Shown: in pieces, positions 2 to 30,012 of the stretch
How positions within the stretch are numbered: position 1 is the first letter of the stretch
Layout of the letters: every line of letters begins with the position of its first letter
DNA from: Pirellula staleyi DSM 6068
GTDB taxonomy: Bacteria > Planctomycetota > Planctomycetia > Pirellulales > Pirellulaceae
Direction: 5' to 3'
Assembly: GCA_000025185.1 (NCBI GenBank)
Contig: CP001848.1
Span: forward strand, 4,440,001-4,472,000
DNA length: 32,000 nucleotides
Position numbers and translations under genes: made by a program
Notes under the pieces: model-generated
The model's input: only the letters and a program-made list of their open reading frames with translations
The model's database searches: none
Told to the model about the DNA's origin: nothing

Positions 2-3000
2 GCTGGGCTGCTGCTCCCGGTCGATCTGCTCGCGCGCATTGTCGACGGCGATCCCAACCTGCCGGGCCTCACCCCCAAGGATTACCACCTGCGCTCTGGC
101 GAACGGCTCAATGAAGCGGCCAGCCGGGCCTGGAATGAATGCCTGGCCGCCTGGAAGTCGTTTCGCAAGAAGTTCGCCTCTCTTCCAGCCTCGGATACCG
201 GCACCACGCTCACCCGCGATGAATGGCTGTTGCCGCTGTTTCAGGAACTCGGCTACGGGCGTCTGCAACCCAAGCGAGCCATCGTCATCGATGGCAAGGA
301 ATACCCGATCAGCCACGGTTGGGAAGATCACGTCCCTATCCACCTGCTGTCAGCTCGCTATTCCATCGACCGCCGCACGCCGGGGGCCGCCGGGGCGGCC
401 ACCCGTGCCCCGTACAGCCTGCTTCAGGAGCTGCTCAACAGCAGCGGCCAGCATCGCTGGGGATTTGTCACCAACGGTCTCAAGCTCTACCTGCTGCACG
501 ACAACGCCGCCCTCGCGCGGGCCGCGAATGTCGAATTCGACCTCGAAGCGATGATGGACGGCGAACTCTACGCCGACTTCATGCTGCTGTTCCTGCTCTG
601 CCATCAATCCCGCGTCGAGATTCAGCCCACGCCGATTGCCAAAGTCACCCTGGATCGGAAGACCGGCAAGGCCAAGAAGGCGAAAGCCACGAGTCAGAAG
701 AAGCTGGTCACCGATGACGATGCCGAAGCCGGTGAAGGCGACGACTCCGTCGACGCGGAAGCAGAAAAGACCCGGCTTGGTCCGGAGAACTGCTGGCTGG
801 AGCGCTGGGCCAATCAGGCTGATCAGCAAGGGACCCGCGCCCGCGACAAACTACGAGATGGCGTCGAAGCGGCGATCAAGTCCCTCGGAGCCGGTTTCCT
901 GACCACCAAGGGGAATCAGGCACTTCGCGAGCGGATGCGGACGGGCGAACTGTCGACCCAGGACTATTACCGCCAGCTTCTCCGCGTCGTCTATCGGCTG
1001 CTGATGCTGCTCGTCGCCGAGGAAAAGAAGACCGAGAACGGGGCCAACCTCTTTCATCCCCCCGGCACTCCGCCCGAGGTCACCGACCGTTACGCCCGCT
1101 TCTACTCGGTCAGCCGCATTCGCACGCTGGCCTACGAGCGGCGCGGCACCGCTCACACTGATCTGTATGAATCGCTCAAGGTCCTGTTCCTCAAGCTGCG
1201 CGAGGGGTACGCCCCGCTGGGCATTCCCGGCATGGGTTCGTTTCTCTTCTCGGACGACTCCACGCCCGATCTGGACGACGCCTTCCTCGCCAATCAGGAC
1301 TTGCTCGATGCCTTCCGGAATCTCTGTTACACGGAAGACACATCCGGGCGCGGCGGCAGCATTCGCCGTCCGGTCGACTTCGGCAGCCTCGGCAGCGATG
1401 AACTCGGCAGCGTGTACGAATCGCTGCTCGAACTGCATCCCAAGATCGACACCGATGAGGGGCCGTTCACGCTCGGCACGGCGTCCGGTAACGAACGCAA
1501 AACGACCGGTAGCTACTACACCCCGACCTCGCTCATCAACTGCCTGCTCGACTCGGCCCTCGATCCGGTCGTTCACGCCGCCATCGATGTTCCTGATCGT
1601 GCCGAGGCCGAACGCAAGCTGCTCAATCTGAAAGTCTGCGATCCGGCGTGCGGCAGCGGACACTTTCTGATCGCAGCCGCTGAGCGAATGGCGATGCACC
1701 TGGCTAGGCTGCGGACCGGCGATGACGAGCCGAACACGCTCGATGTCCAGCACGCCAAACGCGACATCATCGGCCGCTGCATCTACGGCGTCGACATCAA
1801 CCCGATGGCCGTTGAGCTGTGTAAGGTCGCCCTCTGGATGGAAGCGATGGAGCCGGGGAAGCCGTTCTCGTACCTCGAACATCACATCCAGTGCGGCAAC
1901 AGCCTGCTCGGAACCACACCCGCGCTGCTCGCCAAGGGAATCCCCGACGATGCGTTCACGGCGATTGAAGGAGATGTGAAGTCCCGCGTCAGCGAACTGA
2001 AGAAGCAGAACAAGAAAGAGCGGCTGGATCGCATCAATCGGCAAACGGAGATGTTCGAGCCGCCGTTGAAACTCGGCAACCTCTCGTCAGAGTTCGTGCG
2101 GCTAAACATCCTGGAAGACGACTCGATCAGCGACATCCGCTCGATGGAAGAGCGGTACACGGCCCTCGTTCGCGGAGCGGACTACCAGAACGCCCGGTTG
2201 CTGGCCGATACGTGGTGCGCGGCGTTCGTCTGGAAGAAGGATGACTCCGATCTCGGCAAGCTCTGCCCCACCGAGCGCGACTTCCGCAAGGTCGAATCAC
2301 ACGCCGCCGCTGGTCTGTTGCCTCACGTCCGCACCGAAGTCGAACGCCTGCGAAACCAATACCAGTTCTTTCACTGGCATCTGGCGTTCCCAGACGTGTT
2401 CCGTTTGCCGAGCCAGGACGAGCAGCCAGGCAACGAACATACAGGCTGGAACGGGGGCTTCAATGTTGTCCTCGGAAATCCGCCGTGGGAGCGAATCAAC
2501 ATCAATCAAAAGGAGTGGTTCGCCAGTCGATCGCGAGAGATTAGTGGTGCTTCTAACGCCGCATCTAGGCGAGCGGCAATCTTGCGGCTTTCATCGACTG
2601 ACCCTGTCCTTCAGCAGCATTGGAAGGACGCGATTCGCGAAGCCGCCGGAAATACTCATCTATTGCGAGACAGTGGGGGGTTCCCGTTGTGCGGACGCGG
2701 TGATGTAAATACTTATGCCGTGTTCTGTGAACTTAATCGAGCGATTATTGATTCGTACGGAACTGTTGGCTGCATTGTGCCGCCAGGAATTGCGATGGAC
2801 GCGACCACCCAAGACTTTTTCCAAGACCTTGTTCGCAATCAGTCTCTAATCGCAGTGTTCCATTTTGAGAACGAAGCCAAAGTATTTCCAGGTGTTCACC
2901 ATGCTTTTCGGTTTTGCCTGTTCGTCATCGGTGGCAATCGACGGGTAACCATGACTCCAGTATTTGTTGCATATGCCAGATCCGTTGACGATCTCCGTCA

Positions 3001-4849
3001 ACCCGATCGTCTATACGCGATGAGCAAAGCTGAGTTTCAACGGCTGTGTCCAAACACCGGGACATTTCCTGCATTTCGCAGCCGGAGAGATGCAGAGTTA
3101 ACCAAGCTAATACATGCAAAGGTTCCGGTCCTTATCCGCCATGCCGCAGAAGACGGAAACCCTTGGCAATGCGAGTTGCGACGCATGATACACATGTCCG
3201 ATGACGCCGAATGTTTTTCAAATAAAGATGCAATGACTCGTGAAGGCGCAGTTTTATCAGGAAATATATTCGTCGTCGGCAACGAACGCTACCTTCCGCT
3301 TTACGAAGCAAAGATGTGCCACATTTTTGATCACCGTTATGGTACGTACGCGGGCCAAACTGAGGCACAAGCCCAACAGGGATCTCTTCCAAACCTGTCC
3401 GCAGGGGACCACGCCGATCCTTCATGCTTCCCGATGCCCCGATATTGGGTTCCTGAAAAGGAGGTCGGGAATAGACTCAGAGACCTCTGGAAACATAGGT
3501 GGCTTCTCGGGTGGCGAGACATCACTGGCTCCGAAAAGAGTCGTACTGTTATTGCGACGGTCATCCCTTGCGTAGCAGTTTCGGGGTTCCATCAGATTTA
3601 CCTGCATTATGCTCCGTATCTTGCGGGCTGCGTGTGTGCAAATTTGTCTTCGTTTGTCTTGGACTTTGTATCCCGCCAGAAAGTGGGTGGTACTCACTTG
3701 ACCTACGGGATTCTTGAACAACTACCGATTCTACCACCCGATTCTTACTCAAAGCCATGTCTGTGGTCCGGAAAAGACTCGCGGGTTGAAGCGTTTCCGT
3801 CTCTTGATGGATGGCTGCTGCCTCGCGTCGTTGAACTAACCTACACAGCGTGGGACTTGCAGCCATTCGCGCAGGACTGCGGATACGACGGGCCGCCGTT
3901 CCGCTGGGACGAAGAGCGTCGCTTCCAGCTCCGTGCGGAACTCGACGCCGCCTTTTTCCATCTTTACCTCCCCAGCGATGCCCAAGGCGACTGGCTCCCC
4001 GCCGCCAACGAATCCCCGGACGACCTCGCCCGGCTCAAGGAGAGTTTCCCCCAGCCACGCGACGCCGTCTCCTACATCATGGACACCTTCCCCATCGTCC
4101 GCCGCAAAGACATCGCCAAACACGGCACCTACCGCACGAAGGACACGATCCTCAACGTCTACGACGCCATGCAGACCGCCATCCGCACCGGCATCCCCTA
4201 CCAAACGATTCTCGATCCCCCGCCAGCCGATCCACGCGTCGCGCATCCAGCGCGTGAGGCGGCCGTCGTCCCACTCAGATCGGTGGTAGTCGATCCGGTT
4301 TTTCCGAAGACGGATTTGGAGAAGGTGCTGTGCGCCTGTTTACTCGATTTCGTGACGTCGCAGCCAAGTCTAAAGGAGGACGAATACGTCGATCTGATGA
4401 TCCTCGCGATGCAGCCTGCGAATTGCCGTTTGCTCCTGACAGGCGATGAACGCGACCGCTTCGACCAATTCCTGACGGCGGTCTTGCCCGAGTTGATCGC
4501 CGACAGTGACGGAAAGCCACCGTGGCGTATGCTTCTTTCGACGTTTCGGGCCAATCTGTCGATTCAGAGAGATCGCTTCGCCCCAGGAGCCAACGCCCAG
4601 ATCGTTCGCGGAAAACTGCCGGATGTCAACGGTCAGTTCGTGGCACTGGTCCTGAAGGCAGGAGAGCGCTTGCGAGAACTTCAGGAAGCTGCCACTCCTC
4701 ACGATGGACCATCAACGCCGCCGCCGATAGGAGTCCGCAGTGCGCGAAAAGTTCGGGATGACGCTCCAACTGATCCGGCGTTGGTCAACTTGGTCAATTC
4801 GGTAAAGAACCACCGAATGGCGGCCATGAGTGGAGCTACTTCGGCATGA
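2..4849 (+). CDS. Large Eco57I/type IIG-like N6-adenine DNA methyltransferase with post-catalytic specificity region and C-terminal extension; 5' end outside window
   Basis: The frame is open from nt 2. Residues upstream of the track Met at 230 read ...LTPKDYHLRSGERLNEAASRAWNECLAAWKSFRKKF...TRDEWLLPLFQELGYG and continue the protein. SAM-binding motif I VCDPACGSGHFL lies at 1634-1669 and catalytic NPPW at 2477-2488. A TRD-like block follows (WRDITGSEKSRTVIATVIP), then a conserved-looking C-terminal GTYRTKDTILNVYDAM and about 250 aa more. The TGA stop overlaps the next start (ATGA 4846-4849). Confidence 0.85.
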   Translation, partial: AGLLLPVDLLARIVDGDPNLPGLTPKDYHLRSGERLNEAASRAWNECLAAWKSFRKKFASLPASDTGTTLTRDEWLLPLFQELGYGRLQPKRAIVIDGKEYPISHGWEDHVPIHLLSARYSIDRRTPGAAGAATRAPYSLLQELLNSSGQHRWGFVTNGLKLYLLHDNAALARAANVEFDLEAMMDGELYADFMLLFLLCHQSRVEIQPTPIAKVTLDRKTGKAKKAKATSQKKLVTDDDAEAGEGDDSVDAEAEKTRLGPENCWLERWANQADQQGTRARDKLRDGVEAAIKSLGAGFLTTKGNQALRERMRTGELSTQDYYRQLLRVVYRLLMLLVAEEKKTENGANLFHPPGTPPEVTDRYARFYSVSRIRTLAYERRGTAHTDLYESLKVLFLKLREGYAPLGIPGMGSFLFSDDSTPDLDDAFLANQDLLDAFRNLCYTEDTSGRGGSIRRPVDFGSLGSDELGSVYESLLELHPKIDTDEGPFTLGTASGNERKTTGSYYTPTSLINCLLDSALDPVVHAAIDVPDRAEAERKLLNLKVCDPACGSGHFLIAAAERMAMHLARLRTGDDEPNTLDVQHAKRDIIGRCIYGVDINPMAVELCKVALWMEAMEPGKPFSYLEHHIQCGNSLLGTTPALLAKGIPDDAFTAIEGDVKSRVSELKKQNKKERLDRINRQTEMFEPPLKLGNLSSEFVRLNILEDDSISDIRSMEERYTALVRGADYQNARLLADTWCAAFVWKKDDSDLGKLCPTERDFRKVESHAAAGLLPHVRTEVERLRNQYQFFHWHLAFPDVFRLPSQDEQPGNEHTGWNGGFNVVLGNPPWERININQKEWFASRSREISGASNAASRRAAILRLSSTDPVLQQHWKDAIREAAGNTHLLRDSGGFPLCGRGDVNTYAVFCELNRAIIDSYGTVGCIVPPGIAMDATTQDFFQDLVRNQSLIAVFHFENEAKVFPGVHHAFRFCLFVIGGNRRVTMTPVFVAYARSVDDLRQPDRLYAMSKAEFQRLCPNTGTFPAFRSRRDAELTKLIHAKVPVLIRHAAEDGNPWQCELRRMIHMSDDAECFSNKDAMTREGAVLSGNIFVVGNERYLPLYEAKMCHIFDHRYGTYAGQTEAQAQQGSLPNLSAGDHADPSCFPMPRYWVPEKEVGNRLRDLWKHRWLLGWRDITGSEKSRTVIATVIPCVAVSGFHQIYLHYAPYLAGCVCANLSSFVLDFVSRQKVGGTHLTYGILEQLPILPPDSYSKPCLWSGKDSRVEAFPSLDGWLLPRVVELTYTAWDLQPFAQDCGYDGPPFRWDEERRFQLRAELDAAFFHLYLPSDAQGDWLPAANESPDDLARLKESFPQPRDAVSYIMDTFPIVRRKDIAKHGTYRTKDTILNVYDAMQTAIRTGIPYQTILDPPPADPRVAHPAREAAVVPLRSVVVDPVFPKTDLEKVLCACLLDFVTSQPSLKEDEYVDLMILAMQPANCRLLLTGDERDRFDQFLTAVLPELIADSDGKPPWRMLLSTFRANLSIQRDRFAPGANAQIVRGKLPDVNGQFVALVLKAGERLRELQEAATPHDGPSTPPPIGVRSARKVRDDAPTDPALVNLVNSVKNHRMAAMSGATSA

Positions 4850-6879
4850 CGATCCTCAAGAAGTGCGACCTCGCTTCCAAACGATCCGAGCCTTCGGTCT
4901 GGATCAGCAAACTGGCGTTGTTTGAATCCCTCGATCCCCTGACACCGATCCGGGAACCGATAAAGTTTCACACGGGGCTGAACATCGTCTGGGGCGTCGA
5001 GAACGAAGCCAACGACGAGAAGTTCGAACCAGGCCACGGCGTTGGCAAGACTACCCTCTGTCGGCTGATTCGGTACTGCCTCGGTGAACCAACCTACGGA
5101 CAGTCGCATGCGGCCAAAGAGATTCTGAACACGTTTCCCGATGGCCACGTCGCCGCAGAGGTCTACATTCAGGGCCGGCGCTGGGCAGTATTGCGTCCCT
5201 TCAACAAGACCCGCGCGGACCGCGCACAGGGCGACGCCACAATCACGGAGCTGCTTGCCAATCCACCGCTCAAGGAGTCATTCCGTGAGTATCAGAATCT
5301 GCTGGCGTCAACTTGCCTCTCCGGACTCAGCACTGATGGCGTGCTGACTGGTGGGGCCTCGATCGAATGGCTCCATCTGCTGGCCCTGTGTTCTCGCGAT
5401 CAGGAGGCTCGCTACCAGAGCCTGTGGCAGTGGCGTTCACCGCGAAGCGATTCGGCCCCTCGAAACATTCAAAAAGATGACGCCCATCTGACGCTGCGGT
5501 CCGTCCTCGGCCTGCTGCCCGATGAGGAAACCACGCTCCAGAAGAAGTTAGCAAAGTACGACAGCGAACTCGCCCAGGTCGAGAAGGACATCGCCGAACG
5601 CGTCCGCGAACCTGAGTACTGGACACGGCACTACCGTCAGACTTTGGAACGCGACTTCAAGATCAAGGATGCGACAAACGCTTCTCTCCAACCTAATGAC
5701 TTGTACGGGATTCCCGAACTCGTGAAGGCAGCCATCAGCAAGCGAGATCAAAAACAGATCGAACGCAGTACGAGACTGGACGAACTTGAGCGGCACATTG
5801 CAATGGCCGGTAGCCTTTTGCTCGAACCCGCAGAGCATCAACAATCCGTCGAGGCCGCCGGGAATGTTACCAAAGCTGGTGCAGATACATTCACGGAAAG
5901 CGTTGAGGAGTTGCGACGACTTCGAAAAGAAATCGAAGACATGGGGATCTGGCCCTGCAAGTACGCCCACCCTCTATTGATTGGGAATTGTCAGCACACA
6001 AATCAGAGGCTCGTTAGTCTCGATTCCGAGATTCGCGATGCCTCAGCCCAAGAGCTTCCAAAATCTGCCAGGAAAGACCAGCAGGCCGCGGCGCTTCGTC
6101 AACAATCGGAACGCCAGAAGACTGGCCTGACGAAGCAACGTGAGCAGTTGGACGCTTACATCAAAGAGCGTCGCGCTCTGAACGACAAGCGGATCGCCGC
6201 AGACAAGGACATCCGGGCGTTGCGAGCAGCGCTAACCAGCCTGGAAACATGGGAACAGATTCGCACTGGAATGGTTCCTGACTCGGACCTCGCACAACTT
6301 CAGAAGCGAAAGAAGAGTCTGGAAACCAGGCAGACAACTGCGAAGGGACAGCTGACAGCTCTTCTCGCATCACAGGATCAGTCGCTCACGAAACTACGGA
6401 CTGTCTACGAAGCGCTTGCCCGAAACACGCTTTCAACCGAATTCAACGGGCGTGTTCTGCTCACGAGCGAGGGCCTTGAATTCCGCGTGTTTCGGGGCGA
6501 GAACCTTTCCGGGGAAGCCTTTGAGACTCTTTCGATCTTGCTGGCCGATATCGCGGTGCTACTGATGGGATCGCTCGGCGCTGCGTCTCACCCCGGAATC
6601 CTGATTCACGACAGTCCGCGAGAGGCGGACCTGGGCGGTCATATCTACCGCCGACTTCTTCTCTCCGTGGCTGAAGTGGCTGGTGAACTAGCGGTTGACG
6701 ATACCGTTCCGTTCCAGCAAATCGTCACGACAACGACGCCGCCTCCCCCGACGCTGAAGAAGAAGGCAACAACCTGCCTGAAGCTCGGTGGAGAAGAAGG
6801 GCAGTTGTTTCGCAGGCAGTTGCATGCGATGGCCACGACTCAGCAGTCCTTCGGATTTGACATGGAGAATGGCGAATGA
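4846..6879 (+). CDS. SMC/Rad50-like ABC ATPase with long coiled-coil insert
   Basis: The N-terminus FHTGLNIVWG...PGHGVGKTTLCRLIRYCLG contains a Walker A motif. The middle (aa ~230-520) is charged and heptad-rich. The C-terminus has a signature-like NLSGEAFETLS followed by a Walker-B-like PGILIHDSPREADL (Asp-Ser rather than Asp-Glu). ATGA overlaps occur at both ends (4846-4849 and 6876-6879). Confidence 0.75.
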   Translation: MTILKKCDLASKRSEPSVWISKLALFESLDPLTPIREPIKFHTGLNIVWGVENEANDEKFEPGHGVGKTTLCRLIRYCLGEPTYGQSHAAKEILNTFPDGHVAAEVYIQGRRWAVLRPFNKTRADRAQGDATITELLANPPLKESFREYQNLLASTCLSGLSTDGVLTGGASIEWLHLLALCSRDQEARYQSLWQWRSPRSDSAPRNIQKDDAHLTLRSVLGLLPDEETTLQKKLAKYDSELAQVEKDIAERVREPEYWTRHYRQTLERDFKIKDATNASLQPNDLYGIPELVKAAISKRDQKQIERSTRLDELERHIAMAGSLLLEPAEHQQSVEAAGNVTKAGADTFTESVEELRRLRKEIEDMGIWPCKYAHPLLIGNCQHTNQRLVSLDSEIRDASAQELPKSARKDQQAAALRQQSERQKTGLTKQREQLDAYIKERRALNDKRIAADKDIRALRAALTSLETWEQIRTGMVPDSDLAQLQKRKKSLETRQTTAKGQLTALLASQDQSLTKLRTVYEALARNTLSTEFNGRVLLTSEGLEFRVFRGENLSGEAFETLSILLADIAVLLMGSLGAASHPGILIHDSPREADLGGHIYRRLLLSVAEVAGELAVDDTVPFQQIVTTTTPPPPTLKKKATTCLKLGGEEGQLFRRQLHAMATTQQSFGFDMENGE

Positions 6880-7886
6880 GCAATTCACGTACGGTGACAG
6901 AAAGAAATGCGATTGCGGCCGTTCAGCGTTATGTCGAATCCGATTGGTTCAGCCGTTGGCAAGAGTTCGAGGCGAGAAACGACGATGGTGTCGATGGCAT
7001 AGTCTTCCTACGCAAGAAGAAGTTGGACAAGAAGAGCAATAAGCCTGACAAGGCACCTGGCTATACATCATTGCCGATTCGTGGGGTATTGTTCGTGCAG
7101 GTAAAGGGTGGCGAAGGCTATGCCGGACAATCGCAAAAGCGACCGGACCACATAGAGATCAACCTTGGCGAGGAGTATATCAACAACCATCGCCCTCGAT
7201 GGGATGCGCTACCAGGGCCTGCGATTCTTGTTTACGTTAACACGGCCAATCTCAAGCAGAATCTCGATGCGTGGTGGACAGACCTGAAAGTTGATTCAAC
7301 CTATTCGGATGATAACAAGCAGATCGTGCTTGTCCCCAAATCACAAAGATTTGGACCACACTCCAAGGGGCACATGAGACGGCTTCTTGGACCTGAAACT
7401 CAGTACGATGCACATCTGCATCCTCTCACAGCCGTCCATAAAGACTCGTCATACGTCTCCATTGTCCTTCCCCTGAAAGCGTGTGCTCGGAGCTTCTATC
7501 GAGAGTGGTCAGTTCTACCGGCTTCGGAACGCACACATCCAGGGCTCGGAGAGATTCTCGTGACGCGAAACGGATGGCGACACATCACAAGGAAGGGCCG
7601 AAGACACGAGCGTATCGTTCAGTCATTGCAACTGCTCGGTATTGCCAAGCGGATGATCAAGGAAGTTAAGGACGTCGGTTGGGTTGGTCGAATGGAAGAA
7701 CGCCAGCTAAAAAATGGGACAATTCAGCGGCGCGAGTTGTTAGGCATCCGAGCAAGGGTCAAATTCCCCTTCCGGCAGGAGAGTGTGATCCAAGTGATTC
7801 TCGAACGAAAGCGGATATATGGAAAGAGTCTGATCTCAGAACGAACCACGTTTTACTCAGTCTACGAAGCAAGGCGGGGGAAATAA
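6876..7886 (+). CDS. DUF4365-like PD-(D/E)xK nuclease-fold protein with unassigned basic C-terminal half
   Basis: ERNAIAAVQRYVE...EARNDDGVDGIVFL...GVLFVQVKGGEGY fits the DUF4365 pattern (E..a..v ... D.G[IV]DG ... vQvK). The C-terminal ~170 aa (..VTRNGWRHITRKGRRHE..FYSVYEARRGK) are not recognised. The start overlaps the upstream stop (ATGA). Confidence 0.6.
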   Translation: MSNSRTVTERNAIAAVQRYVESDWFSRWQEFEARNDDGVDGIVFLRKKKLDKKSNKPDKAPGYTSLPIRGVLFVQVKGGEGYAGQSQKRPDHIEINLGEEYINNHRPRWDALPGPAILVYVNTANLKQNLDAWWTDLKVDSTYSDDNKQIVLVPKSQRFGPHSKGHMRRLLGPETQYDAHLHPLTAVHKDSSYVSIVLPLKACARSFYREWSVLPASERTHPGLGEILVTRNGWRHITRKGRRHERIVQSLQLLGIAKRMIKEVKDVGWVGRMEERQLKNGTIQRRELLGIRARVKFPFRQESVIQVILERKRIYGKSLISERTTFYSVYEARRGK

Positions 7887-8043
7887 AAAAGGACACGTAC
7901 CAGTGCGATTCAGCATTCTTACGTCGAAACGCAGGTCTGTTAGGCAAAGGCCGTGTCCAACCGCGAGTTTACGATAGCCTTTCCGTCGAAGCAAGGCTCG
8001 GAAAAAGTTGGCGTGTCACTTCAGAAAAAGAAGCGATTGAGAT

Positions 8044-11000
8044 ATGAAGAAGCGAAAGCGGAAGAAGGAAAAATCTCCGAAGAAGCCGGTCGCTCAGCAG
8101 CCGAGTCTGTCGAGCGACTTCGTTTCCATGAAGGCGATGTACCAGGCATATCAAAAAGCCAAAGTCGACGTCTTCTACGAGCGTTCGCAACCGAGGTCGC
8201 AGGAGTTTTGTGAATACGAACGAAACCTGCACGCCAATCTCACCGCACTGCAGAAAACCCTGACTCGGCCTCGTACCAATTGGTTCAAAAGCAACGACTT
8301 CATTGGTAGTTACGGGTTCATTCCCAAAGGGTTGCAGATTCCTGAGCCCGATGGGGATCAGGACAGCGCCGCGCACTTCAGCGTGTCCAATCCTGACGAT
8401 GCTTGGAATGTGATGATGACGTCCCTTGGAGAAAAGAGGCCCATCGCTGAGTTCCGGCCTGTCGCGCTATTCACCGTCAATATGTATGTCGTGTGTGCAC
8501 TGTGGGTGAATCTTGTCGGTCACATGTTCGATGCCTGCCTCGACAGTTCTGCTCGTGGGACACGGCTGAGGCGTCTCCGGCAGACTGATGAAGAACTCCC
8601 GGAATGCGGCCGCTATCACCTTTCTGCTCCGGGTTCGTTCAAACCCTATTTCAGCTGTTACAAGGAATGGCGTGAGAAGGGGCTACGAGCCATTCGGCAG
8701 GAACTGGCCAAGGATCGCAAAGTCGTCGCCATAACGATGGACCTCAAGGCGTTTTATCACAACGTCGATCCGAAGTTCATCCTGAATGAGAAATTCCTCG
8801 ATGCAATCAGATTCAGTAATGTAAACGGTAGCGGGCTTTATGCTGCTGAGGAACGTATTTTCACTAAACAAATTGTCACTGCGTTCCTGACTTGGGCAAA
8901 GAAACTGCCCCATCTCAAAGCCGATACGCCACCCGGCCTTCCCGTTGGGGTTTCCGCCGCTCGGATCGTCGCGAATGTTCTGCTCGCCGAGTTTGATCGA
9001 CTCGCCCAGCAGAAACTCGATCCGATCTACTATTCGCGGTACGTCGACGACATCTTCCTGGTATTGCGCGACAACGGGAGAATGCGGACTTCTCGGGATG
9101 TCTTGAAGCACCTCTGCCGCAGAATCAAGCCCTTGAACGCCAACGACGACCTGTCCGTACTGACGCTGGCGTTTCCTTACTCCAATGGCTGCAAGCTCTT
9201 GTTTCAGGCAAAGAAGCAGCGTGTGTTCCTGCTTTCAGGAGAAGTGGGGGCCGACCTGCTTGATACAATCGAGAGTCAGATCGACGCAGTTTCCAGCGAA
9301 TGGCGGCTTCTGCCCGACCTCGATGCCTTGGAAAAATCACCTGCGGCCAAGATTCTAACAGCGACCCGCCGCGCCGATGAGAACGCAGATACCCTTCGCA
9401 AGGCTGACCAGTTGTCGCTGAAGCGACTCAGCTTCTCGATCATGCTGCGCCAGTACGACACGCTGGCGCATGATCTTCCTCCGAATGAGTGGAAGCGTGA
9501 ACGAAAGAGGTTCTATCGGTTTGCGGAACGCCACGTTCTGACACCTCTGAGGCTCTTAGATCTGAACGACTATCTACCTCGCCTCCTCGGCTTGGCTGTT
9601 TCCTGCCGGGACTGGACAGTCGCAGGCGGTTTTCTCAAGCGAATTTCGGACGGGATTGAACGACTTCGCAACAACGTGAGTGTAGAGCCGAACGCTGGCG
9701 CAGACAGCCAGTGGGAAGCTTACCTCCGACATCTTCAGACGGCCCTCCGCGAAGCGGTTGTTCGATCCTATCCGCTGAAACAAGACAACCATGCTGCTGA
9801 AAATGCTGCGAAATCTCTCCTCGAAGTGATTGATGCCCTGAATCCGCTGTCATTAAGCAATCCCCAGGATATTTCAGCTTTGTCGTGTGAGCTGTTCTGG
9901 ACCGATCTGGGGCGTATTCCATTCAAAAATGCGTTGCTCGGATATGTTTCGCTTCCACCCTGTACTCTGAAGCCTTTGAAAAGGAAACTTCCTAAGAGTC
10001 AAATGAAACGACTCGGTGTCATCCGGGAATTCCTTCGCGGAGCCGACACGGCCGATATCAAGGTGCAACCGCTTCTGTTTCCAACGCGTCCATTCTCGCC
10101 CCGTGAAATAACAGAATTCGACTGCCGGAGCGCATGGGAACTGGATCGACTCAGGGATTACGTAGTCGCCCTGCGCGGAACCTGGGTAAAGCCGGTCGCC
10201 CACACTTCAAGAGCTGCCAAAACCGCTCCCGCGCCCGAAAGTGGTAGCCCCAAAACTCGCGAAGTGCTGGTTTTCGGTGATGGCAACCGAAAGCATGTTC
10301 CCAGAATTGCAATCACGAGTTTTCTAACCGAAGAATCCAGTTGGGCGAAAGCAGCGGAGGGAACTCCAGAGTTGTCTGCCGAGCGGTACAAGCGTCTCGT
10401 CAGGCTAGCAAATGCCGTCGTAACTTCACCTCATCGAGCGGAGTATGTCGTTTTCCCGGAATTGTCGATACCTCGCAGGTGGCTTCCTGGATTGGCAGGA
10501 CTGTTTATAAAAGCCGGGATATCGCTGATCACGGGCGTTGAGTATCGACGTGTCCCGCCAGAGCCTTCATCACAGGTGGTCAATGAGGCTTACCTCGTGC
10601 TGGCAGACGACCGGCTTGGCTACCGGTCCTGGTGTGTCGTGAGACAGCAAAAAGGCGTTCCTGCACATCACGAGCGAGACGAATTGCGCAGCAAGTTCGG
10701 ACTCACCTTGGCTGCACCTGCCTCGAAAGACGACCCGAAGCCAATCTACCGCCATTTCGGGCATGGTTTCGGGGTCCTGATTTGCAGCGAACTCACCGAT
10801 ATCCGCTTTCGGCAAGAGATGCGCGGCGATGTCGACACGCTGTTTGTGCTCAGCTGGAATCAGGATTTGGAATCGTTTGGGGCACTGGTCGAGGCCGCTG
10901 TTCTGGATGTTCATTGCTACATGGTGCTCGTCAACAATCGGAAGTACGGAGACAGTCGCGTCCGAACGCCATCCAAGAAGAACTGGATGAGGGATCTGGT

Positions 11001-11178
11001 TCGGATCAAGGGCGGGCTGGACGACTATTTTGTGGTCACCGATCTGGAAATCATGTCGCTCCGCAATTTCCAGAGTTACCACGAACCTCCACTTGGTGAT
11101 GACGCCTTGTTTAAGCCGACACCTGAGGGGTTCAAGATCGCCACACGTAGGAAGCAAACACCACGAGGCAATCCGTGA
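8044..11178 (+). CDS. Reverse transcriptase fused to a C-terminal nitrilase (carbon-nitrogen hydrolase) domain; DRT1/UG1-like defence RT
   Basis: RT motif A is VVAITMDLKAFYHNVD, motif B is GLPVGVSAARIVANVLLAEFD, and motif C is YSRYVDDIFLV (YVDD at 9040-9051). An Abi/UG-type N-terminus is present (AMYQAYQKAKVDVFYE...NLHANLTALQKTL). The nitrilase triad candidates are VVFPELSIP (Glu), RQQKGVPAHHE (Lys) and GVLICSELTD (Cys codon 10783-10785). The start is uncertain: ATG 8044 gives a Lys-rich leader MKKRKRKKEKSPKK, and an alternative ATG lies at 8128. Confidence 0.85.
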   Translation: MKKRKRKKEKSPKKPVAQQPSLSSDFVSMKAMYQAYQKAKVDVFYERSQPRSQEFCEYERNLHANLTALQKTLTRPRTNWFKSNDFIGSYGFIPKGLQIPEPDGDQDSAAHFSVSNPDDAWNVMMTSLGEKRPIAEFRPVALFTVNMYVVCALWVNLVGHMFDACLDSSARGTRLRRLRQTDEELPECGRYHLSAPGSFKPYFSCYKEWREKGLRAIRQELAKDRKVVAITMDLKAFYHNVDPKFILNEKFLDAIRFSNVNGSGLYAAEERIFTKQIVTAFLTWAKKLPHLKADTPPGLPVGVSAARIVANVLLAEFDRLAQQKLDPIYYSRYVDDIFLVLRDNGRMRTSRDVLKHLCRRIKPLNANDDLSVLTLAFPYSNGCKLLFQAKKQRVFLLSGEVGADLLDTIESQIDAVSSEWRLLPDLDALEKSPAAKILTATRRADENADTLRKADQLSLKRLSFSIMLRQYDTLAHDLPPNEWKRERKRFYRFAERHVLTPLRLLDLNDYLPRLLGLAVSCRDWTVAGGFLKRISDGIERLRNNVSVEPNAGADSQWEAYLRHLQTALREAVVRSYPLKQDNHAAENAAKSLLEVIDALNPLSLSNPQDISALSCELFWTDLGRIPFKNALLGYVSLPPCTLKPLKRKLPKSQMKRLGVIREFLRGADTADIKVQPLLFPTRPFSPREITEFDCRSAWELDRLRDYVVALRGTWVKPVAHTSRAAKTAPAPESGSPKTREVLVFGDGNRKHVPRIAITSFLTEESSWAKAAEGTPELSAERYKRLVRLANAVVTSPHRAEYVVFPELSIPRRWLPGLAGLFIKAGISLITGVEYRRVPPEPSSQVVNEAYLVLADDRLGYRSWCVVRQQKGVPAHHERDELRSKFGLTLAAPASKDDPKPIYRHFGHGFGVLICSELTDIRFRQEMRGDVDTLFVLSWNQDLESFGALVEAAVLDVHCYMVLVNNRKYGDSRVRTPSKKNWMRDLVRIKGGLDDYFVVTDLEIMSLRNFQSYHEPPLGDDALFKPTPEGFKIATRRKQTPRGNP

Positions 11179-11321
11179 AGGACTGCGTCTGAGCGAGGAT
11201 CGCGTGATAGTGAAGGCAATCTTGAAAAAAAGCGATGCAACCAACCAGACTCAGAAGTATGAGAGTTCTGAAGCTGGAGGAACTACAAACCGCCGGCTGG
11301 GCACCGTAAACTAAGTACTCC

Positions 11322-13304
11322 ATGGACTATTCAAAGACAAATAATACGGCCTCAAAAATGCCTGCTGTCGGACAGCAAGTAGCGCTGAACATGTTTCCGC
11401 TGATCGACCAACGCTTCCCGTTCAAAGTATTTCGACGTCTGGCAGAGGCCAACGAAGGGGCACCGGATGAAGGAATCCGCAAGTATTCACTCCCGCCGAA
11501 CGGTACGGTCCAGGGCACCGACGATCCTTGGCCGCAGTTCTGGGTGTCGTTTGAGGCCAGAGACGGCTTCCTTCCATTTGCGGGTGATGCCAAAACAAAC
11601 CCGCATCTCGCGATGGCATTTCTGTTTCACCTATTGGTTGTCTCAGCCAAAGCATCGGGGCTAGAGCACTTCATTCAGGATGGAATCAAGAAAAAGGTTG
11701 CATTTGTTCTCGACACACATCCCGAGGGAAAAAGTTGCGTTTGGCTTTCACCGTATCAGTGCCGGTCCGCTCGCTCGATTGGTTTCCTGGTCGATTTCTG
11801 GTTCCGCAAGGAAGAGGTACAAGCCCTGAATCGCGAAGTTCTGCGCCTCAGTCATGCGCTTAACGCTCAGTATCGCGAAAACACGGACTTTTACGCGACA
11901 CGATATGCGTCACTTCAGCAGTTCCTTGATCGCATTTATCCTAGCCTGTTTCCGCTACAGTTATCTGAATACCCGCCGATGGATATTCGCAAGACCCTTC
12001 AAAACGTCGACTCCTCACTTCTGAAAACAAAGATGTACTTGGCGGGAGGTTCAAAGCCTTCATCGTCTCAATTCACCGCTGTCAAACTGGACGGACCGAT
12101 TCAGCGTGTGACAGGAGACGTTCGTATTTGCTTTGTGTATCAACCGCAAGACAAACCCCTCTCTCACGACCTCTACAAAGCACTTCGCGGGGACACATAC
12201 AGTCAGTTTCTCGGCATGGAGAGGATGTTTGGGTTCAGCTTGGGAAAGGAGCACGTCTTCGGCATACCAATTCAAGACTACTCTCCTGACGAACTGGCGA
12301 CGGCAACTACGGCTATCAAGGCGCAATCGGGTGGGGCACTGGTCGTTCCGATAGTTCTGATTCCGTGGTTGCGGCATGACACCGAAGACTTTTCTGACCA
12401 ATATTATGTCACAAAGCACGCCTTCTTGAAGGCAGGGCTTCCGTCACAGTTTGTCTCTACCAAGACAATCCGAAATAAGGCGTCGTTCAAGTGGACTGTC
12501 AGCAACATTGGTATGGCCGTCTTTGCCAAACTTGGTGGGAAGCCTTGGAAAGTGGTCTCGGAGAATGATGACTGCTTGATTGTGGGAATCGGCCAGTCCC
12601 ATCGTTGTGGTGAAGACAAGACGATTAGTCGGTACTATTCCTATTGCGTACTTACCGATTCCAGCGGGTTGTATGAAGACGTGCGTGTACTTGGAAAGGA
12701 TACCGATGAGCGCTCTTACCTGACTCGTTTTGCCGACAACTTGTTAGAGATATTTCGTGGGCATTCGCAGCAGTTCAGTCGCTTTGCTATTCACACGCCG
12801 TTCAAGCTCCGCCACGAGGAAATGACGGCAATTCAGGATGCAATAACGCGATTCACTCTCGAAACGCGACGACCGATGACATTCGCCGTTCTGAAGTTCA
12901 ACGCCGATAGCGATTTCATTGGATATTCTGCGACCACTAATGCACGCGTCCCGTTTGAAAGCACACTTGTTCCACTGTCTTTTCAGGATTTCCTCGTCTG
13001 GTTCGAGGGATTGCAATTCCACAAGAGTACCGTGGAACGTCGCTATGGCCGCCCAGTTCACGTTGAGTTTATCTATCCGCATTTCGACCGAAAGAGTCGC
13101 GGTTCCGGCTTGTCGTTGGAACAAAAGAGCGTCTATTTGCAGGACAGCCTCAATCTCTCTGGGGCAAACTGGAGGGGCTTCAATGCAAAGTCTCTTCCCG
13201 TCTCGGTCTTTTACGCGAAGCTCATCGCGCGATACTTCAGCCAGTTTGAACGACTCGGCCTTGAGGAGTGCGAATTGGATAACCTAACACCATGGTTTCT
13301 GTGA
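11322..13304 (+). CDS. Catalytically inactive prokaryotic Argonaute (MID-PIWI preceded by only ~270 aa)
   Basis: The PIWI hallmark NIGMAVFAKLGGKPWKV is present (KLGGKPW at 12528-12548). The first slicer Asp position reads LIVGIGQSH (Gly codon 12591-12593). The RDG-type site reads FAIHTPF. MID-like features include DLYKALRG and YYVTKHAFLKAGLPSQFV. The C-terminus ends ...LTPWFL. Confidence 0.8.
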   Translation: MDYSKTNNTASKMPAVGQQVALNMFPLIDQRFPFKVFRRLAEANEGAPDEGIRKYSLPPNGTVQGTDDPWPQFWVSFEARDGFLPFAGDAKTNPHLAMAFLFHLLVVSAKASGLEHFIQDGIKKKVAFVLDTHPEGKSCVWLSPYQCRSARSIGFLVDFWFRKEEVQALNREVLRLSHALNAQYRENTDFYATRYASLQQFLDRIYPSLFPLQLSEYPPMDIRKTLQNVDSSLLKTKMYLAGGSKPSSSQFTAVKLDGPIQRVTGDVRICFVYQPQDKPLSHDLYKALRGDTYSQFLGMERMFGFSLGKEHVFGIPIQDYSPDELATATTAIKAQSGGALVVPIVLIPWLRHDTEDFSDQYYVTKHAFLKAGLPSQFVSTKTIRNKASFKWTVSNIGMAVFAKLGGKPWKVVSENDDCLIVGIGQSHRCGEDKTISRYYSYCVLTDSSGLYEDVRVLGKDTDERSYLTRFADNLLEIFRGHSQQFSRFAIHTPFKLRHEEMTAIQDAITRFTLETRRPMTFAVLKFNADSDFIGYSATTNARVPFESTLVPLSFQDFLVWFEGLQFHKSTVERRYGRPVHVEFIYPHFDRKSRGSGLSLEQKSVYLQDSLNLSGANWRGFNAKSLPVSVFYAKLIARYFSQFERLGLEECELDNLTPWFL

Positions 13305-14605
13305 TGCCACCCAAATCGAACACAGTCTTTAAGCGAGACGAAATCGTCTTGCTCCTCGGTGCAGGAGCTAGCGTTCCAGCGCAGATTCCGGCATCGCAGG
13401 GGATGATTACGGAAATCGAGAAACTACTGGATTCCTCATGGGCCGACTACAAGAGCCTTTATTTCTTTGTGAAGAGTGCCATTCAGTTCTCAGACGGCAT
13501 TCATGGGCGATTCGACACAGATACTTTCAATGTCGAGAAGCTTGTAGAAACGCTCGATGACTTGAGGCGCGGCGACGAACATCCGCTTTACCCATTCGTC
13601 GGTGCATGGGTGCCCAAGCTATACGAGGTTGCTGGTTCAGACCTGAAAAAAGTCACTGCCTTCCGTGAAGAGATTGTTCGTCGACTCCGCGACGATTGGA
13701 TCCAACTGAAGTATCGAGAACACGCTCAGTATTTCGCTCACCTTGGGCGGTTTCAACGAGAGCTACAGGAACCTCTCCGCTTGTTTACATTGAATTACGA
13801 CTTGTGCGTTGAGACAGCATTGTCGGATGTATCGGACGACTCGTCGATCACATTTGAGCGAGGATTTGACGAGCAAAAAAGGTGGGACTGGCGTCGATTC
13901 GAGTATGAGCGCGGAGTCGGTCCGCCAGATATTTACTTGTATAAACTGCATGGATCGATTGACTGGACTCGCGACGATAATGACAACCTCACTTATCGTG
14001 ATGCAGTGTCTCAGATCAATCCGGAGGACTTGGCGATTATCTCCGGAACGCCAGCGAAGTTGCAGGCGGTCGACCCATTCCTTTTTTTCGCGTACGAACT
14101 TCGCAAATGGACGCTAGAAGAGGCTCGACTGATCGTAACGATCGGCTATGGTTTTGCCGATGACCATATCAATGGGATTCTCCGGCAGTCTCTAAAAGGA
14201 AATCCTGCACGGCAACTGCTTGTCGTTACGTTCATTAAAAACAATGAAAACGCGGAGGAAGTCGCACACAAACGCCAATGCGAGATCGCTCGCAAGATTG
14301 GCATGTTTAAGGACGACGAAGATAATCGCCAGCACCCAAACTATCAGATTATTGTGTGGGGGTGTGGTGCGAAGGAGTTTCTTGAAAAGAAGCTTACTAT
14401 AGAGGGCTTGGGAGGACTGTTCCCGGCAGAAGACACTTTGTTCGATGAAGTCACTATCAACCACCTTTTGAGTGAACCACCGCAGGTTGGGCAACTGGAC
14501 CCTTCTGAAAATGGTCAATCAGGCAATAAAAATATCGATTCTTTAGCATTAGTTGAAACCGCGAAACCTAAGAGAACGAGAGGGCGGGGCCGGTCGAAGA
14601 AATGA
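13292..14605 (+). CDS. SIR2-family (SIR2_2-type) protein, putative NADase effector
   Basis: Motifs are VLLLGAGASVPAQIPASQGM (13358-13372 encodes GAGAS), LFTLNYDLCVE, YKLHGSIDW (His codon 13949-13951) and VTIGYGFADDHINGIL. The gene overlaps the Argonaute stop by 13 nt, or by 1 nt if ATG 13304 is used. It ends in a basic tail KPKRTRGRGRSKK. Confidence 0.8.
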   Translation: MVSVMPPKSNTVFKRDEIVLLLGAGASVPAQIPASQGMITEIEKLLDSSWADYKSLYFFVKSAIQFSDGIHGRFDTDTFNVEKLVETLDDLRRGDEHPLYPFVGAWVPKLYEVAGSDLKKVTAFREEIVRRLRDDWIQLKYREHAQYFAHLGRFQRELQEPLRLFTLNYDLCVETALSDVSDDSSITFERGFDEQKRWDWRRFEYERGVGPPDIYLYKLHGSIDWTRDDNDNLTYRDAVSQINPEDLAIISGTPAKLQAVDPFLFFAYELRKWTLEEARLIVTIGYGFADDHINGILRQSLKGNPARQLLVVTFIKNNENAEEVAHKRQCEIARKIGMFKDDEDNRQHPNYQIIVWGCGAKEFLEKKLTIEGLGGLFPAEDTLFDEVTINHLLSEPPQVGQLDPSENGQSGNKNIDSLALVETAKPKRTRGRGRSKK

Positions 14606-15170
14606 CAGTAGCCTGTTGGAAAACTCGATAACAACGCAGTTATCCCTTAGGATTCCCGAAAAAGTCGCGCGGCTTCAATTTCAGGCGGGATTTTCAACAA
14701 GCTGCTTTGGGATTCTTCAACGAAGTAAATCGACAGATAGCTCGCGCTGAATGTGAAATTGACGCTGGGCATACAATAGCGGCGTTGGCGATAGGCGAAA
14801 GTGTCTTCAGCCACCGTTTCCTAGACGATAATCGCCCCTTATCTTGGCTGCCGACTATCGGGAAGTTCTTTCGCCAACTTCTGCAGGATCACTTCGGTGG
14901 TGAGGGCGGCGAAGATGCGAGCGTCGTTTTCTTTATCTACTAGCGTCGCTCTGTTTATGTGACGTCAAGTTCCTTGTGAAGGAAGTGTCCGTTCGGTCAA
15001 GCGCGTTATGGATATTCACGGTTGAGGCGTCGGGAGGTGGCTTTCTTGGGCGAGAGGAGGTGGGCAAGGTTTGCAGCGGGCGAACTGCGAGCGGCTGAGT
15101 GTGTGGGCGGGAGCGATTGCGGGAAGTGGGCGGCGGGTCTTAGTGTGATCGATTAACGCTGCGGAGAGCG

Positions 15171-15602
15171 TCATTGCGGAGCCAGCGGCTCCGCAGCATC
15201 TTCCGCTTTCCAGATGTCGGGCAGGAACTGCGCGAGTTCATTGGCGGGTGTCTGACCGATCTTGGCCAGAACGCTCGTGAGGTACGCCTGCGGATCGACG
15301 TTGCTGCGCTCAGCGCTGGCGAGGAGCAAACACAGCTTCGCGTGGCTCGCAGCGGCCGCTTCGTTACCAGCAAAGAGCCAGTTTTTGCGGCCGATCGCCA
15401 CGCGCTTCAGCGCCCGCTCGCTGGCGTTGTTGTCGATGTCGAGGAAGCCTCGCGTGGTGTAAGTCGTCAGCGCCGTCCACTGGTTCTGTACTTCGCGCAT
15501 CGTCGCGCTCACCGAGTCGACCATCACGCTCGGCGATCGTTCTCCGCCAGGCATAAATCGCCGACTCGGCCAGCTGTTCGCGGCGACAGAACTCGCGCAC
15601 AC
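15171..15602 (-). pseudogene. IS66-family transposase, C-terminal fragment only
   Basis: ...REVQNQWTALTTYTTRGFLDIDNNASERALKRVAIGRKNWLFAGNEAAAASHAKLCLLLASAERSNVDPQAYLTSVLAKIGQTPANELAQFLPDIW matches the conserved IS66 transposase C-terminus. The DDE core is absent. Confidence 0.75.
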
Positions 15603-15699
15603 TTAACTCGCTAGAAGCAAACCGCTGAAACACCCCACGCCAAAAACCTTCCCTCGCCGAACCCCGCTGCTGCCGCGCCATGCCAAAACTCCTGGTCAC
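15364..15699 (-). pseudogene. IS66-family accessory (TnpA-like HTH) N-terminal fragment
   Basis: Only the first ~55 codons look genuine (MARQQRGSAREGFWRGVFQRFASSELSVREFCRREQLAESAIYAWRRTIAERD). After about nt 15535 the frame runs out-of-frame over the transposase C-terminal fragment, which marks a deletion junction. Confidence 0.55.
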
Positions 15700-15761
15700 A
15701 AAAACCAGCAGCTTGACACCCCACCACCTAAATCAAAACCCGCACTCCACGGAACGGATAC

Positions 15762-25243: not shown

Positions 25244-25443
25244 CTCAGTCGCATCGGTGTCAAAGTCAACGGGAAATTCTTTAATGTACGTCCGAAGCGT
25301 CTGCGGGTCGCAATCCGGGAAGCACTCATCCGAATAACCAGCTTCTACATGGGCGACATTCCGGAGCGGACATGGATCGAAACTAGCACGAACAAGAACC
25401 TTTGGCGATCAATTCGTGTCCTCCGATAGAATCGCCATGCAAT

Positions 25444-25449
25444 AAGGAG
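25444..25449 (+). promoter_or_regulatory. Shine-Dalgarno AAGGAG for the AlbA_2 gene
   Basis: aataAGGAGcacggaATG, with a 6-nt spacer to ATG 25456. Confidence 0.5.
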
Positions 25450-25455
25450 CACGGA

Positions 25456-30007: not shown

Positions 30008-30012
30008 GGTCT

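Follow-up and report, generated by a model that had tools for sequence, protein, structure and literature searches.

A methyltransferase C-terminal domain and an SMC-like ATPase in the last two genes of a probable ARMADA-type operon of Pirellula staleyi

Do three genes that are joined by overlaps of four nucleotides (nt) form a restriction-modification (R-M)-like system of their own, or are they parts of another one? This question is raised by a stretch of 32,000 nt from Pirellula staleyi DSM 6068 (CP001848.1, positions 4,440,001 to 4,472,000; the window in what follows), at the beginning of which a DNA methyltransferase gene, a gene for an ATPase resembling the SMC (structural maintenance of chromosomes) family and a gene with a DUF4365 domain follow one another. 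Frame 2 is uninterrupted from base 2 to the stop codon at 4847-4849, with no stop upstream of it, and the next open reading frames (ORFs) encode proteins of 677 and 336 amino acids (aa), all three genes being co-directional (Table 1). Stop and start share the letters ATGA at both junctions, 4846-4849 (read as ...GGCATGACG...) and 6876-6879 (read as ...CGAATGAGC...). A first-pass annotation, made from the sequence alone, had described these two overlaps, a methyltransferase of more than 1,600 aa that runs off the window and has motif I and NPPW without a visible nuclease motif, an SMC-like ATPase, and a third protein with a PD-(D/E)xK fold. All of this description was borne out by our analysis. 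It had also taken the overlaps to imply obligate co-expression; the overlaps are real, but four-nucleotide overlaps are frequent in operons and alone are no proof of an obligate three-gene unit.

In our reading, this region forms the 3' end of an operon of the ARMADA type within a planctomycete defence island. In more specific terms, we consider it likely that bases 2-6879 contain the two final genes of an anti-phage operon that is restriction-like, of the ARMADA type and related to DISARM, that the methyltransferase's C-terminal domain (CTD) and the ATPase form a portable add-on to this operon, and that the DUF4365 gene is a separately mobile nuclease cassette.

The methyltransferase-ATPase pair and its operon

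We scanned one genome per GTDB species and obtained 514 relatives of the ATPase; the counts of genome loci given here refer to 80 of these 514. A second sample comprised 80 metagenome loci seeded by the SNF2 helicase, nearly all of which have the order YprA-SNF2-methyltransferase. Relatives of the ATPase occur in Planctomycetota, Verrucomicrobiota, Desulfobacterota, Chloroflexota, Nitrospirota, Proteobacteria, Bacteroidota and a Thorarchaeote, and the closest to the window ATPase are planctomycete. In 73 of the 80 genome loci, the gene directly upstream of the ATPase belongs to a methyltransferase family, at a median distance of 9 nt and at no more than 20 nt in 72 of the 73. The methyltransferase and the SMC-like ATPase are truly coupled and form a widely conserved pair. 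The ATPase is nevertheless optional within such operons. It is present in 10 of about 37 informative SNF2-seeded loci, and in about one in four of the ARMADA-I-like loci.

The genes that precede this pair can be read from sister loci, which we cite by our locus numbers. In L083, where the ATPase is 96% and the DUF4365 protein 94% identical to those of the window and nucleotide identity is 87-94% over 14.7 kb, the gene order is UvrD-SNF2-methyltransferase (1635 aa)-ATPase-DUF4365-reverse transcriptase (RT)-prokaryotic Argonaute (pAgo)-SIR2; the position of a YprA gene would fall outside the stretch examined there. The SNF2 protein of L083 (949 aa, with SNF2-rel_dom and Helicase_C) is encoded directly upstream of the methyltransferase, as it also is in L081 and L082. 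In L081, whose ATPase is 76% identical, the first gene encodes 1845 aa with DEAD, Helicase_C, MZB (DUF1998) and DUF559 domains, and is followed by UvrD-SNF2-methyltransferase (1619 aa)-ATPase-RT-pAgo-SIR2. A UvrD-family gene of 696 aa is found in all three loci between YprA and SNF2 (in L083, ahead of SNF2), and a RelE domain is not among the Pfam matches listed for it. Of the 80 GTDB loci, 41 repeat the order YprA-SNF2-methyltransferase-ATPase; a helicase of the YprA family that bears a nuclease domain is present in L081 and in at least 41 of the 80.

In ARMADA, described in 2025, a PglX-like methyltransferase goes together with two helicases, one of the YprA family bearing a Vsr nuclease and the other a BrxHII-like SNF2 protein; YprA is the first gene in type I, whereas type II has a fourth gene that is UvrD/GajB-like (PMC12458937). 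The system acts directly, without cell killing, and requires both NPPW and the ATPase motifs of the helicases (PMC12458937; PMC13463889); in ARMADA II, mutation of the asparagine of the equivalent NPPW abolished defence (PMC12458937). Considering that the genes of the sister loci match the ARMADA components and the type I order, we regard the operon as likely to be ARMADA. Upstream of the window we infer a YprA-family helicase with a C-terminal Vsr/DUF559 domain, a UvrD-like helicase and a SNF2/BrxHII-like helicase. Because a Vsr-bearing helicase stands upstream in the sister loci, the restriction nuclease is likely this off-window Vsr domain rather than the DUF4365 protein.

The methyltransferase itself matches Eco57I (7e-19), N6_Mtase and MmeI_Mtase of Pfam, and its top PADLOC family is DrmMI (190 bits). 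Its full-length identity to the methyltransferases of YprA-SNF2-methyltransferase loci is 38-53%. Neither Pfam nor PADLOC nor NCBIfam finds a nuclease domain in it. Window base 1 corresponds to base 3102 of L083, where the methyltransferase gene begins at 3061. Since base 1 thus falls 41 nt inside the L083 gene, about 14 codons are off-window and the gene is almost complete. In a blastn comparison with L083, identity is 94% for window bases 1-1976 and 87.5% for 3815-14706, with only a short match of 74% between them. In related methyltransferase fragments, the corresponding part contains MmeI_TRD/TaqI_C directly ahead of the CTD. A mosaic of this kind, with alike flanks and an unrelated middle, suggests a specificity swap between near-identical systems, and armB is the variable gene in E. 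coli islands (PMC13463889). In the operon, the methyltransferase would both mark and read the target motif.

For the ATPase, Walker A, the Q-loop and a signature-like motif are intact. No Pfam or NCBIfam family matches it, and the PADLOC match to LmuB is weak (60 bits). An AlphaFold2 model built with 20 homologues (pLDDT 87.8) has an ATP-binding cassette (ABC) head that is split by an antiparallel coiled coil of about 300 residues, and Foldseek ranks B. subtilis YydD first (9e-17), followed by LmuB chains (4e-13 to 3e-9) and then by Rad50, SMC and JetC. The coiled coil has at its apex two invariant cysteines, C371 and C382, with Cx10C spacing (nt 5956-5991). Sequence searches of the PDB with the ATPase, the ATPase profile, the CTD profile and the DUF4365 protein returned coiled-coil noise or nothing.

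Table 1. Positions in the window of the three genes, their motifs and associated elements
Feature	Position	Strand	Remarks
ArmB/PglX/DrmMI-like N6-adenine DNA methyltransferase	2..4849	+	1615 codons in window, ~14 N-terminal codons outside
Motif I DPACGSGHF, S-adenosylmethionine binding	1640..1666	+	inside Pfam N6_Mtase/MmeI_Mtase
Divergent methyltransferase middle, spanning the region of target-recognition domains	1977..3814	+	apparently swapped relative to L083
Motif IV NPPW, catalytic	2477..2488	+	motif read from sequence
Methyltransferase CTD, ~190 aa, proposed ATPase adaptor	4157..4717	+	profile hidden Markov model
LmuB/YydD-like SMC-family ABC ATPase, 677 aa	4846..6879	+	coiled coil aa ~226-528
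Walker A GHGVGKT	5032-5052	+	ATPase motif
Q-loop	5395-5412	+	ATPase motif
Signature SGEAFET	6508-6528	+	ATPase motif, signature-like
HDSPREAD	6607-6630	+	invariant HDSPRE in place of Walker-B 'DE'
DUF4365 (DREN/Mrr-like PD-(D/E)xK) nuclease, conserved C-terminal half	6876..7886	+	Pfam DUF4365 9e-26
NDDGVDG motif	6978-6998	+	conserved
FVQVK motif	7092-7106	+	conserved; D...QxK
Conserved element of ~65 nt with 7-bp inverted repeat GGACACG...CGTGTCC	7891..7955	+	shared with L088 (~11020-11085), different neighbours

The C-terminal domain and its tie to the ATPase

The profile of the CTD matches directly ahead of the ATPase gene in about 66 loci. The domain is found only where the ATPase gene comes behind it, being absent from methyltransferases that lack this follower, and the ATPase in turn comes with the domain on the protein before it. 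Among the SNF2-seeded loci, all eight alignable methyltransferases with the ATPase gene behind them extend far beyond the position of window aa ~1420, either by 100-200 aa or with an alignment that continues to window aa 1553 (L149); of the methyltransferases without the ATPase, 19 of 20 end within 25 aa of this position. The methyltransferase of L088 (1396 aa), which is 63-83% identical to that of the window up to aa 1411, comes with neither the CTD nor the ATPase. We also compared pairwise identities between loci. The Spearman coefficient is 0.71 for ATPase versus CTD (70 loci) and 0.10 for ATPase versus the methyltransferase body (51 loci); shared ancestry inflates the p-values, yet the two coefficients clearly differ.

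The same domain terminates other proteins as well. It is found at the end of a type I HsdS of 653 aa from Kolteria novifilia Pan216, in a locus of the order HsdR-HsdM-HsdS-ATPase (L001; NZ_CP036279.1, 512542-534557), at the end of type ISP enzymes with the ATPase gene next (L067 and L070), and at the end of AAA_21 ATPases with the SMC-like ATPase gene next (L030 and L054). In L002 (193 aa) and L003, the CTD is a small separate ORF ahead of the ATPase. Five ATPase-bearing loci are true class 1 DISARM, in which the ATPase stands between DrmMI and DrmA. Judging from this distribution, the CTD and the ATPase appear to be one portable unit that has been grafted onto specificity-bearing proteins of several restriction classes.

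Searches of Pfam and PADLOC with the CTD at E values up to 10 gave nothing, LmuC included. A single-sequence search of 1.84 billion representative proteins gave 80 matches, mainly short fragments. The ten longer matches that we checked were C-terminal fragments of methyltransferases or had no Pfam match; five of them carry a MmeI_TRD, TaqI_C or Eco57I-type domain before the CTD, and two more carry Eco57I only. A description of the module was not found in the ARMADA paper or its domain table (PMC12458937), in the class 1 DISARM paper, in the paper on embedded defence genes (10.1101/2024.01.29.577857) or in the other literature searched, and the add-on of CTD and SMC-like ATPase is apparently undescribed.

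Several loci show further arrangements of these genes. In L002 (7394-12505) and L176 (5131-9876), genes for a protein with a CBS domain and for a short helicase of the SNF2 type (~500 aa) come after the CTD and the ATPase, and the module of L002 adjoins an integrase fragment, with the methyltransferase absent. In L030 (8090-12064) and L054 (8067-12064), an AAA_21 (AbiEii/OLD-like) protein of 633-642 aa with the CTD precedes the SMC-like ATPase and the upstream genes lie on the opposite strand, forming a two-ATPase module without a methyltransferase. A gene of ~335 aa with no family match is located between the CTD-bearing methyltransferase and the ATPase in L027 (8974-9981) and L035 (9003-9998).

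In Lamassu, LmuC is encoded directly before LmuB and binds it, like the C-terminal domain of SbcD before SbcC, and the LmuB-LmuC pair senses DNA ends (PMC12663957). Given that the position of the CTD and the fold of the ATPase resemble LmuC-LmuB, we infer by analogy that the CTD docks an SMC-like dimer on the methyltransferase and that the ATPase adds clamping or end sensing. The CTD would tether the dimer to the subunit responsible for specificity or methylation, as LmuC holds LmuB and as the SbcD C-terminal domain holds SbcC. The ATPase would then supply an ATP-driven arm for DNA clamping or DNA-end sensing, helping the restriction complex to engage invading DNA. Extending this to all the loci, we propose tentatively, at slightly less than an even chance, that the CTD and the LmuB/YydD-like ATPase are an undescribed portable accessory module that equips the specificity subunits of four or more classes of restriction-type systems (ARMADA type I, DISARM class 1, type I HsdS and type ISP) with a DNA sensor or clamp of the SMC family, the CTD also occurring as a stand-alone LmuC-like ORF. 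If this is true, the module would be a general route for recruiting SMC-like machines to methylation-based discrimination of self and non-self. ARMADA and DISARM are broad-spectrum anti-phage systems that act directly and do not rely on the death of the infected cell. A dedicated docking domain that ties methyltransferase or specificity subunits to an ATPase of the SMC/Lamassu type would bridge SMC-based DNA sensing and restriction-like systems, both of them large branches of immunity in prokaryotes.

Several observations weigh against these readings of the operon and its add-on. The helicase and nuclease genes lie outside the window, and their presence is derived from the sister loci. The ATPase lacks the canonical Walker-B 'DE' and has the invariant HDSPRE instead, and accordingly its catalytic cycle is uncertain. 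The CTD has no detectable homology to LmuC, to kleisins or to any PDB or Pfam entry, and its co-variation with the ATPase could stem from co-transfer instead of physical contact. The module also occurs without any methyltransferase (L002, L030 and L054). Furthermore, most ARMADA-I-like loci have no ATPase and the published description of ARMADA is silent on it; therefore its contribution may be minor or its purpose different. Finally, about one locus in three has a different defence gene behind the ATPase at a distance of at most 30 nt, which leaves room for an effector-coupling role of the ATPase.

The DUF4365 gene, its neighbours and the rival explanations

The DUF4365 protein has no NCBIfam match. 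In its structural model (pLDDT 85), the closest fold is the DREN domain of SPARDA (E = 3e-8, 173 columns, root-mean-square deviation 4.1), and its D...QxK is presumably similar to the motif of Mrr. A homologue is present in none of the 80 ATPase-bearing genome loci and in none of the 80 SNF2-seeded metagenome loci. The gene is missing in L081 and L082, whose ATPases are 74-76% identical to that of the window, and in a contig with a 94% identical ATPase. In these sisters a gene of ~1050 aa directly follows the ATPase; in L081 it is the RT, and the alignment shows window bases 6846-8106 replaced by 129 nt. In L176, three genes lie between the ATPase and the DUF4365 gene. In L088-L093, a 75% identical DUF4365 gene follows an SF1 helicase/DUF559 gene in an ARMADA-like locus without the ATPase. 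Relatives at 42-45% identity stand alone in other phyla; the context of one is that of a mobile element, and another has an OLD nuclease next to it.

The homology between the window and L088 runs from the start codon of the DUF4365 gene to ~70 nt beyond its stop codon and is lost upstream of the start. The conserved element behind the gene (Table 1) has a modest predicted fold (z = -1.9) and may serve the cassette as a terminator or for recombination. Because its presence, position and neighbours vary across loci, the DUF4365 gene is an independently moving single-gene nuclease cassette that is translationally coupled to the operon in this lineage only. It landed in the variable 3' end of the operon. 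In L088, the block downstream of the DUF4365 gene (11157-20019) encodes REase-ARP, DUF5677 and DUF6361 proteins, a 647-aa protein, a 1102-aa helicase-like protein and a DUF2293 protein, and may be another multi-gene defence system.

Other genes are found after the ATPase in other loci. These are RT-nitrilases of the Drt1a and UG5 types, HEPN/RES and HNH_2 proteins, an ImmA/IrrE pair, a DUF4062 protein with a Schlafen-type protein, a kinase-helicase fusion, AAA_13 proteins, and HEPN with OLD. The stretch downstream of the ATPase is a general landing site for such cargo, and such 'embedding' of defence genes has been described for Hma, BREX, DISARM and type I systems (10.1101/2024.01.29.577857).

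In the window, the DUF4365 gene is followed by a UG5-type RT-nitrilase gene at 8044-11178 (+; PADLOC 940 bits). RT-nitrilases (UG5 or Drt1a) also stand immediately after the ATPase in unrelated phyla (L081, L033, L029, L051, L074 and L076), with gaps of -4 to 54 nt; in L081 the start touches the stop of the ATPase gene. This recurrence is more than we would expect for random neighbours in an island. Next in the window come a 660-aa pAgo gene at 11322-13304 (+; PADLOC pAgo_II, 716 bits) and, overlapping it by 13 nt, a 437-aa Aga_SIR2 gene at 13292-14605 (+). The pair, which looks like a pAgo with a SIR2 effector, is kept together with the RT in L081 and L083 and is independent of the DUF4365 gene.

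One rival explanation is a Lamassu-like abortive module inside ARMADA, in which the LmuB-like ATPase and the CTD, as LmuC, would sequester and later release an effector encoded by the next gene (DUF4365 here; HEPN/RES, HNH, RT-nitrilase and others elsewhere), the methyltransferase being a mere tether. The YydD- and LmuB-like fold of the ATPase fits this explanation, and in Lamassu the effectors are interchangeable nucleases or other toxins and LmuC precedes LmuB (PMC12663957). In addition, 22 of 61 co-directional downstream genes begin within 30 nt of the ATPase stop, seven of them overlapping it, and the close ones are toxin-like (HEPN/RES, HNH_2, Drt1a and OLD). However, the DUF4365 protein has no LmuA-type C-terminal domain and no PADLOC match, and its relatives function in settings that lack the ATPase. 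In 20 of 81 loci (the 80 genome loci and the window), the ATPase has no co-directional gene behind it, and many of the downstream genes are known autonomous systems (DRT1 and OLD). We consider this explanation unlikely.

PrrC and RloC guard type I R-M systems, and PARIS responds to Ocr. In a guard model of this kind, the ATPase would use the CTD to sense whether the restriction complex is intact, starting a back-up response when anti-restriction proteins of a phage inhibit the complex. The model would suit a module that sits on specificity-bearing subunits of several restriction classes not related to one another (ARMADA, DISARM, type I and type ISP), and ABC ATPases embedded in R-M-like systems do recur (10.1101/2024.01.29.577857). 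On the other hand, the ATPase has no fused effector, unlike PrrC and RloC, it does not match AAA_13, and there is no constant partner effector across the loci. Its probability is, in our estimation, low, about one that we would give to a long shot.

Least of all, and only at a very small probability, do we credit a self-sufficient R-M-like system of these three genes, with methylation as the mark of self and the SMC-like ATPase driving the DUF4365 nuclease: the ATGA overlaps join all three genes, the closest relatives L083-L087 have the same order and the DUF4365 catalytic motif is intact, but this gene is absent from both samples and from sister loci with 74-94% identical ATPases, stands apart from the ATPase in L176 and without it in L088 and among its stand-alone relatives, and a complete helicase/nuclease set is encoded upstream in the sister loci. 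The first-pass annotation had proposed this mechanism, which the distribution of the DUF4365 gene contradicts. It had also stated that a complete known system among the upstream genes would refute its idea, and in the sister loci these genes are the YprA-Vsr, UvrD and SNF2 components of ARMADA. What remains of its triad is R-M-like defence and the co-occurrence of methyltransferase and ATPase across genomes, with DUF4365 outside the unit. Returning to the ARMADA-type operon with a separate DUF4365 cassette, we note that tight four-nucleotide overlaps in defence islands do not delimit functional systems, as the window shows.

A scan of 4500-8300 for promoters and terminators was indistinguishable from shuffled sequence, and no tRNA genes were found in the window. 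A 1605-aa ORF at 15762-20579 (-) has a sub-threshold NACHT match (E = 9e-4) and no PADLOC family; its product may be an uncharacterised STAND-type defence protein. A Schlafen AlbA_2 protein is encoded at 25402-26469 (+), and DUF1501 and PSD1 (DUF1553) genes are located at 28610-31779 (-). DUF1501 and PSD1 genes are typical of planctomycete chromosomes, and together with AlbA_2 they probably mark the end of the defence island.

Comparison with known systems

Several known systems share single features with the locus. The methyltransferase has the motif order of type IIG R-M enzymes (Eco57I/MmeI), and the Eco57I, MmeI_Mtase and REase_MTase_IIG profiles match over aa ~490-840. However, the profiles cover the methyltransferase core only (aa ~494-647 for the type IIG profiles), and no N-terminal PD-(D/E)xK or other nuclease family was detected in aa 1-490; we rejected this identity. 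BREX and MADS were likewise rejected, in agreement with the first-pass annotation, as the NCBIfam PglX and MADS2 matches reach at most 45 bits against cut-offs of 400-900 and no PglZ, BrxC, BrxL or MAD1-8 partners are present in the window or the sister loci. Hma of PADLOC was not retained as the system identity, as the SNF2 protein is only weakly HmaA-like and the ATPase matches no HmaC model. With regard to SPARDA (DREN-APAZ with a short pAgo), the N-terminal domain of the third protein superposes on DREN and D...QxK is kept, but APAZ was not detected in it and its C-terminal half is a different domain. A SPARDA-type link between the DUF4365 protein and the pAgo was rejected, because the pAgo is paired with Aga_SIR2 and this pair persists in L081 without DUF4365.

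The ATPase resembles PrrC, RloC and the embedded ABC ATPases of Hma systems (HEC-01 to HEC-04) in being genetically wired into R-M-type loci. It differs from them in that no anticodon-nuclease, TOPRIM, NERD or PIN effector is fused to it or constantly paired with it, and it belongs to another ABC subfamily, matching neither AAA_13 nor AAA_21. Its Cx10C apex also differs from the CxxC hook of Rad50. By predicted fold, the ATPase head, the kinked coiled coil and the apex are like those of Lamassu LmuB and B. subtilis YydD, although the sequence similarity to LmuB is weak. As in Lamassu (LmuA-LmuC-LmuB) and SbcCD, a small partner module is encoded just ahead of the SMC-like gene, with the CTD in the LmuC position and sometimes as an ORF of its own. 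Unlike in these systems, the partner is fused to methyltransferase or specificity subunits, and in contrast to Lamassu there is no LmuA-type effector in the window and no conserved downstream partner across the loci.

Class 1 DISARM (DrmD, DrmMI, DrmA, DrmB and DrmC) is closer. The top PADLOC match of the methyltransferase is DrmMI, the SNF2 protein of related loci matches DpdE best and also DrmD, and bona fide class 1 loci (L004, L005, L010 and L055) have the same CTD and ATPase between DrmMI and DrmA. The difference lies in the fused YprA-Vsr helicase of the sister loci, as against the split DrmA/DrmB with the PLD nuclease DrmC. DrmA, DrmB (DUF1998) and DrmC (PLD nuclease) have no match in the window, in L081-L083 or in the SNF2-seeded loci, and are found only in more distant ATPase-bearing loci (L003, L004, L005, L010 and L055).

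ARMADA is the system with which the locus is best compared. On the one hand, the sister loci have a UvrD-like helicase between YprA and SNF2, whereas in type II it is encoded by the last gene and in type I there is none, and the window methyltransferase has a CTD of ~190 aa followed by an SMC-like ATPase, which are absent from the text and domain table of the ARMADA paper (PMC12458937). On the other hand, the window encodes a PglX-like methyltransferase with the SAM-binding and NPPW motifs, and the sister loci encode a BrxHII/RapA-like SNF2 helicase and a YprA helicase with MZB/DUF1998 and a Vsr-type nuclease, YprA coming first in the fashion of type I. In both, diversity is concentrated in the methyltransferase gene, as for armB.

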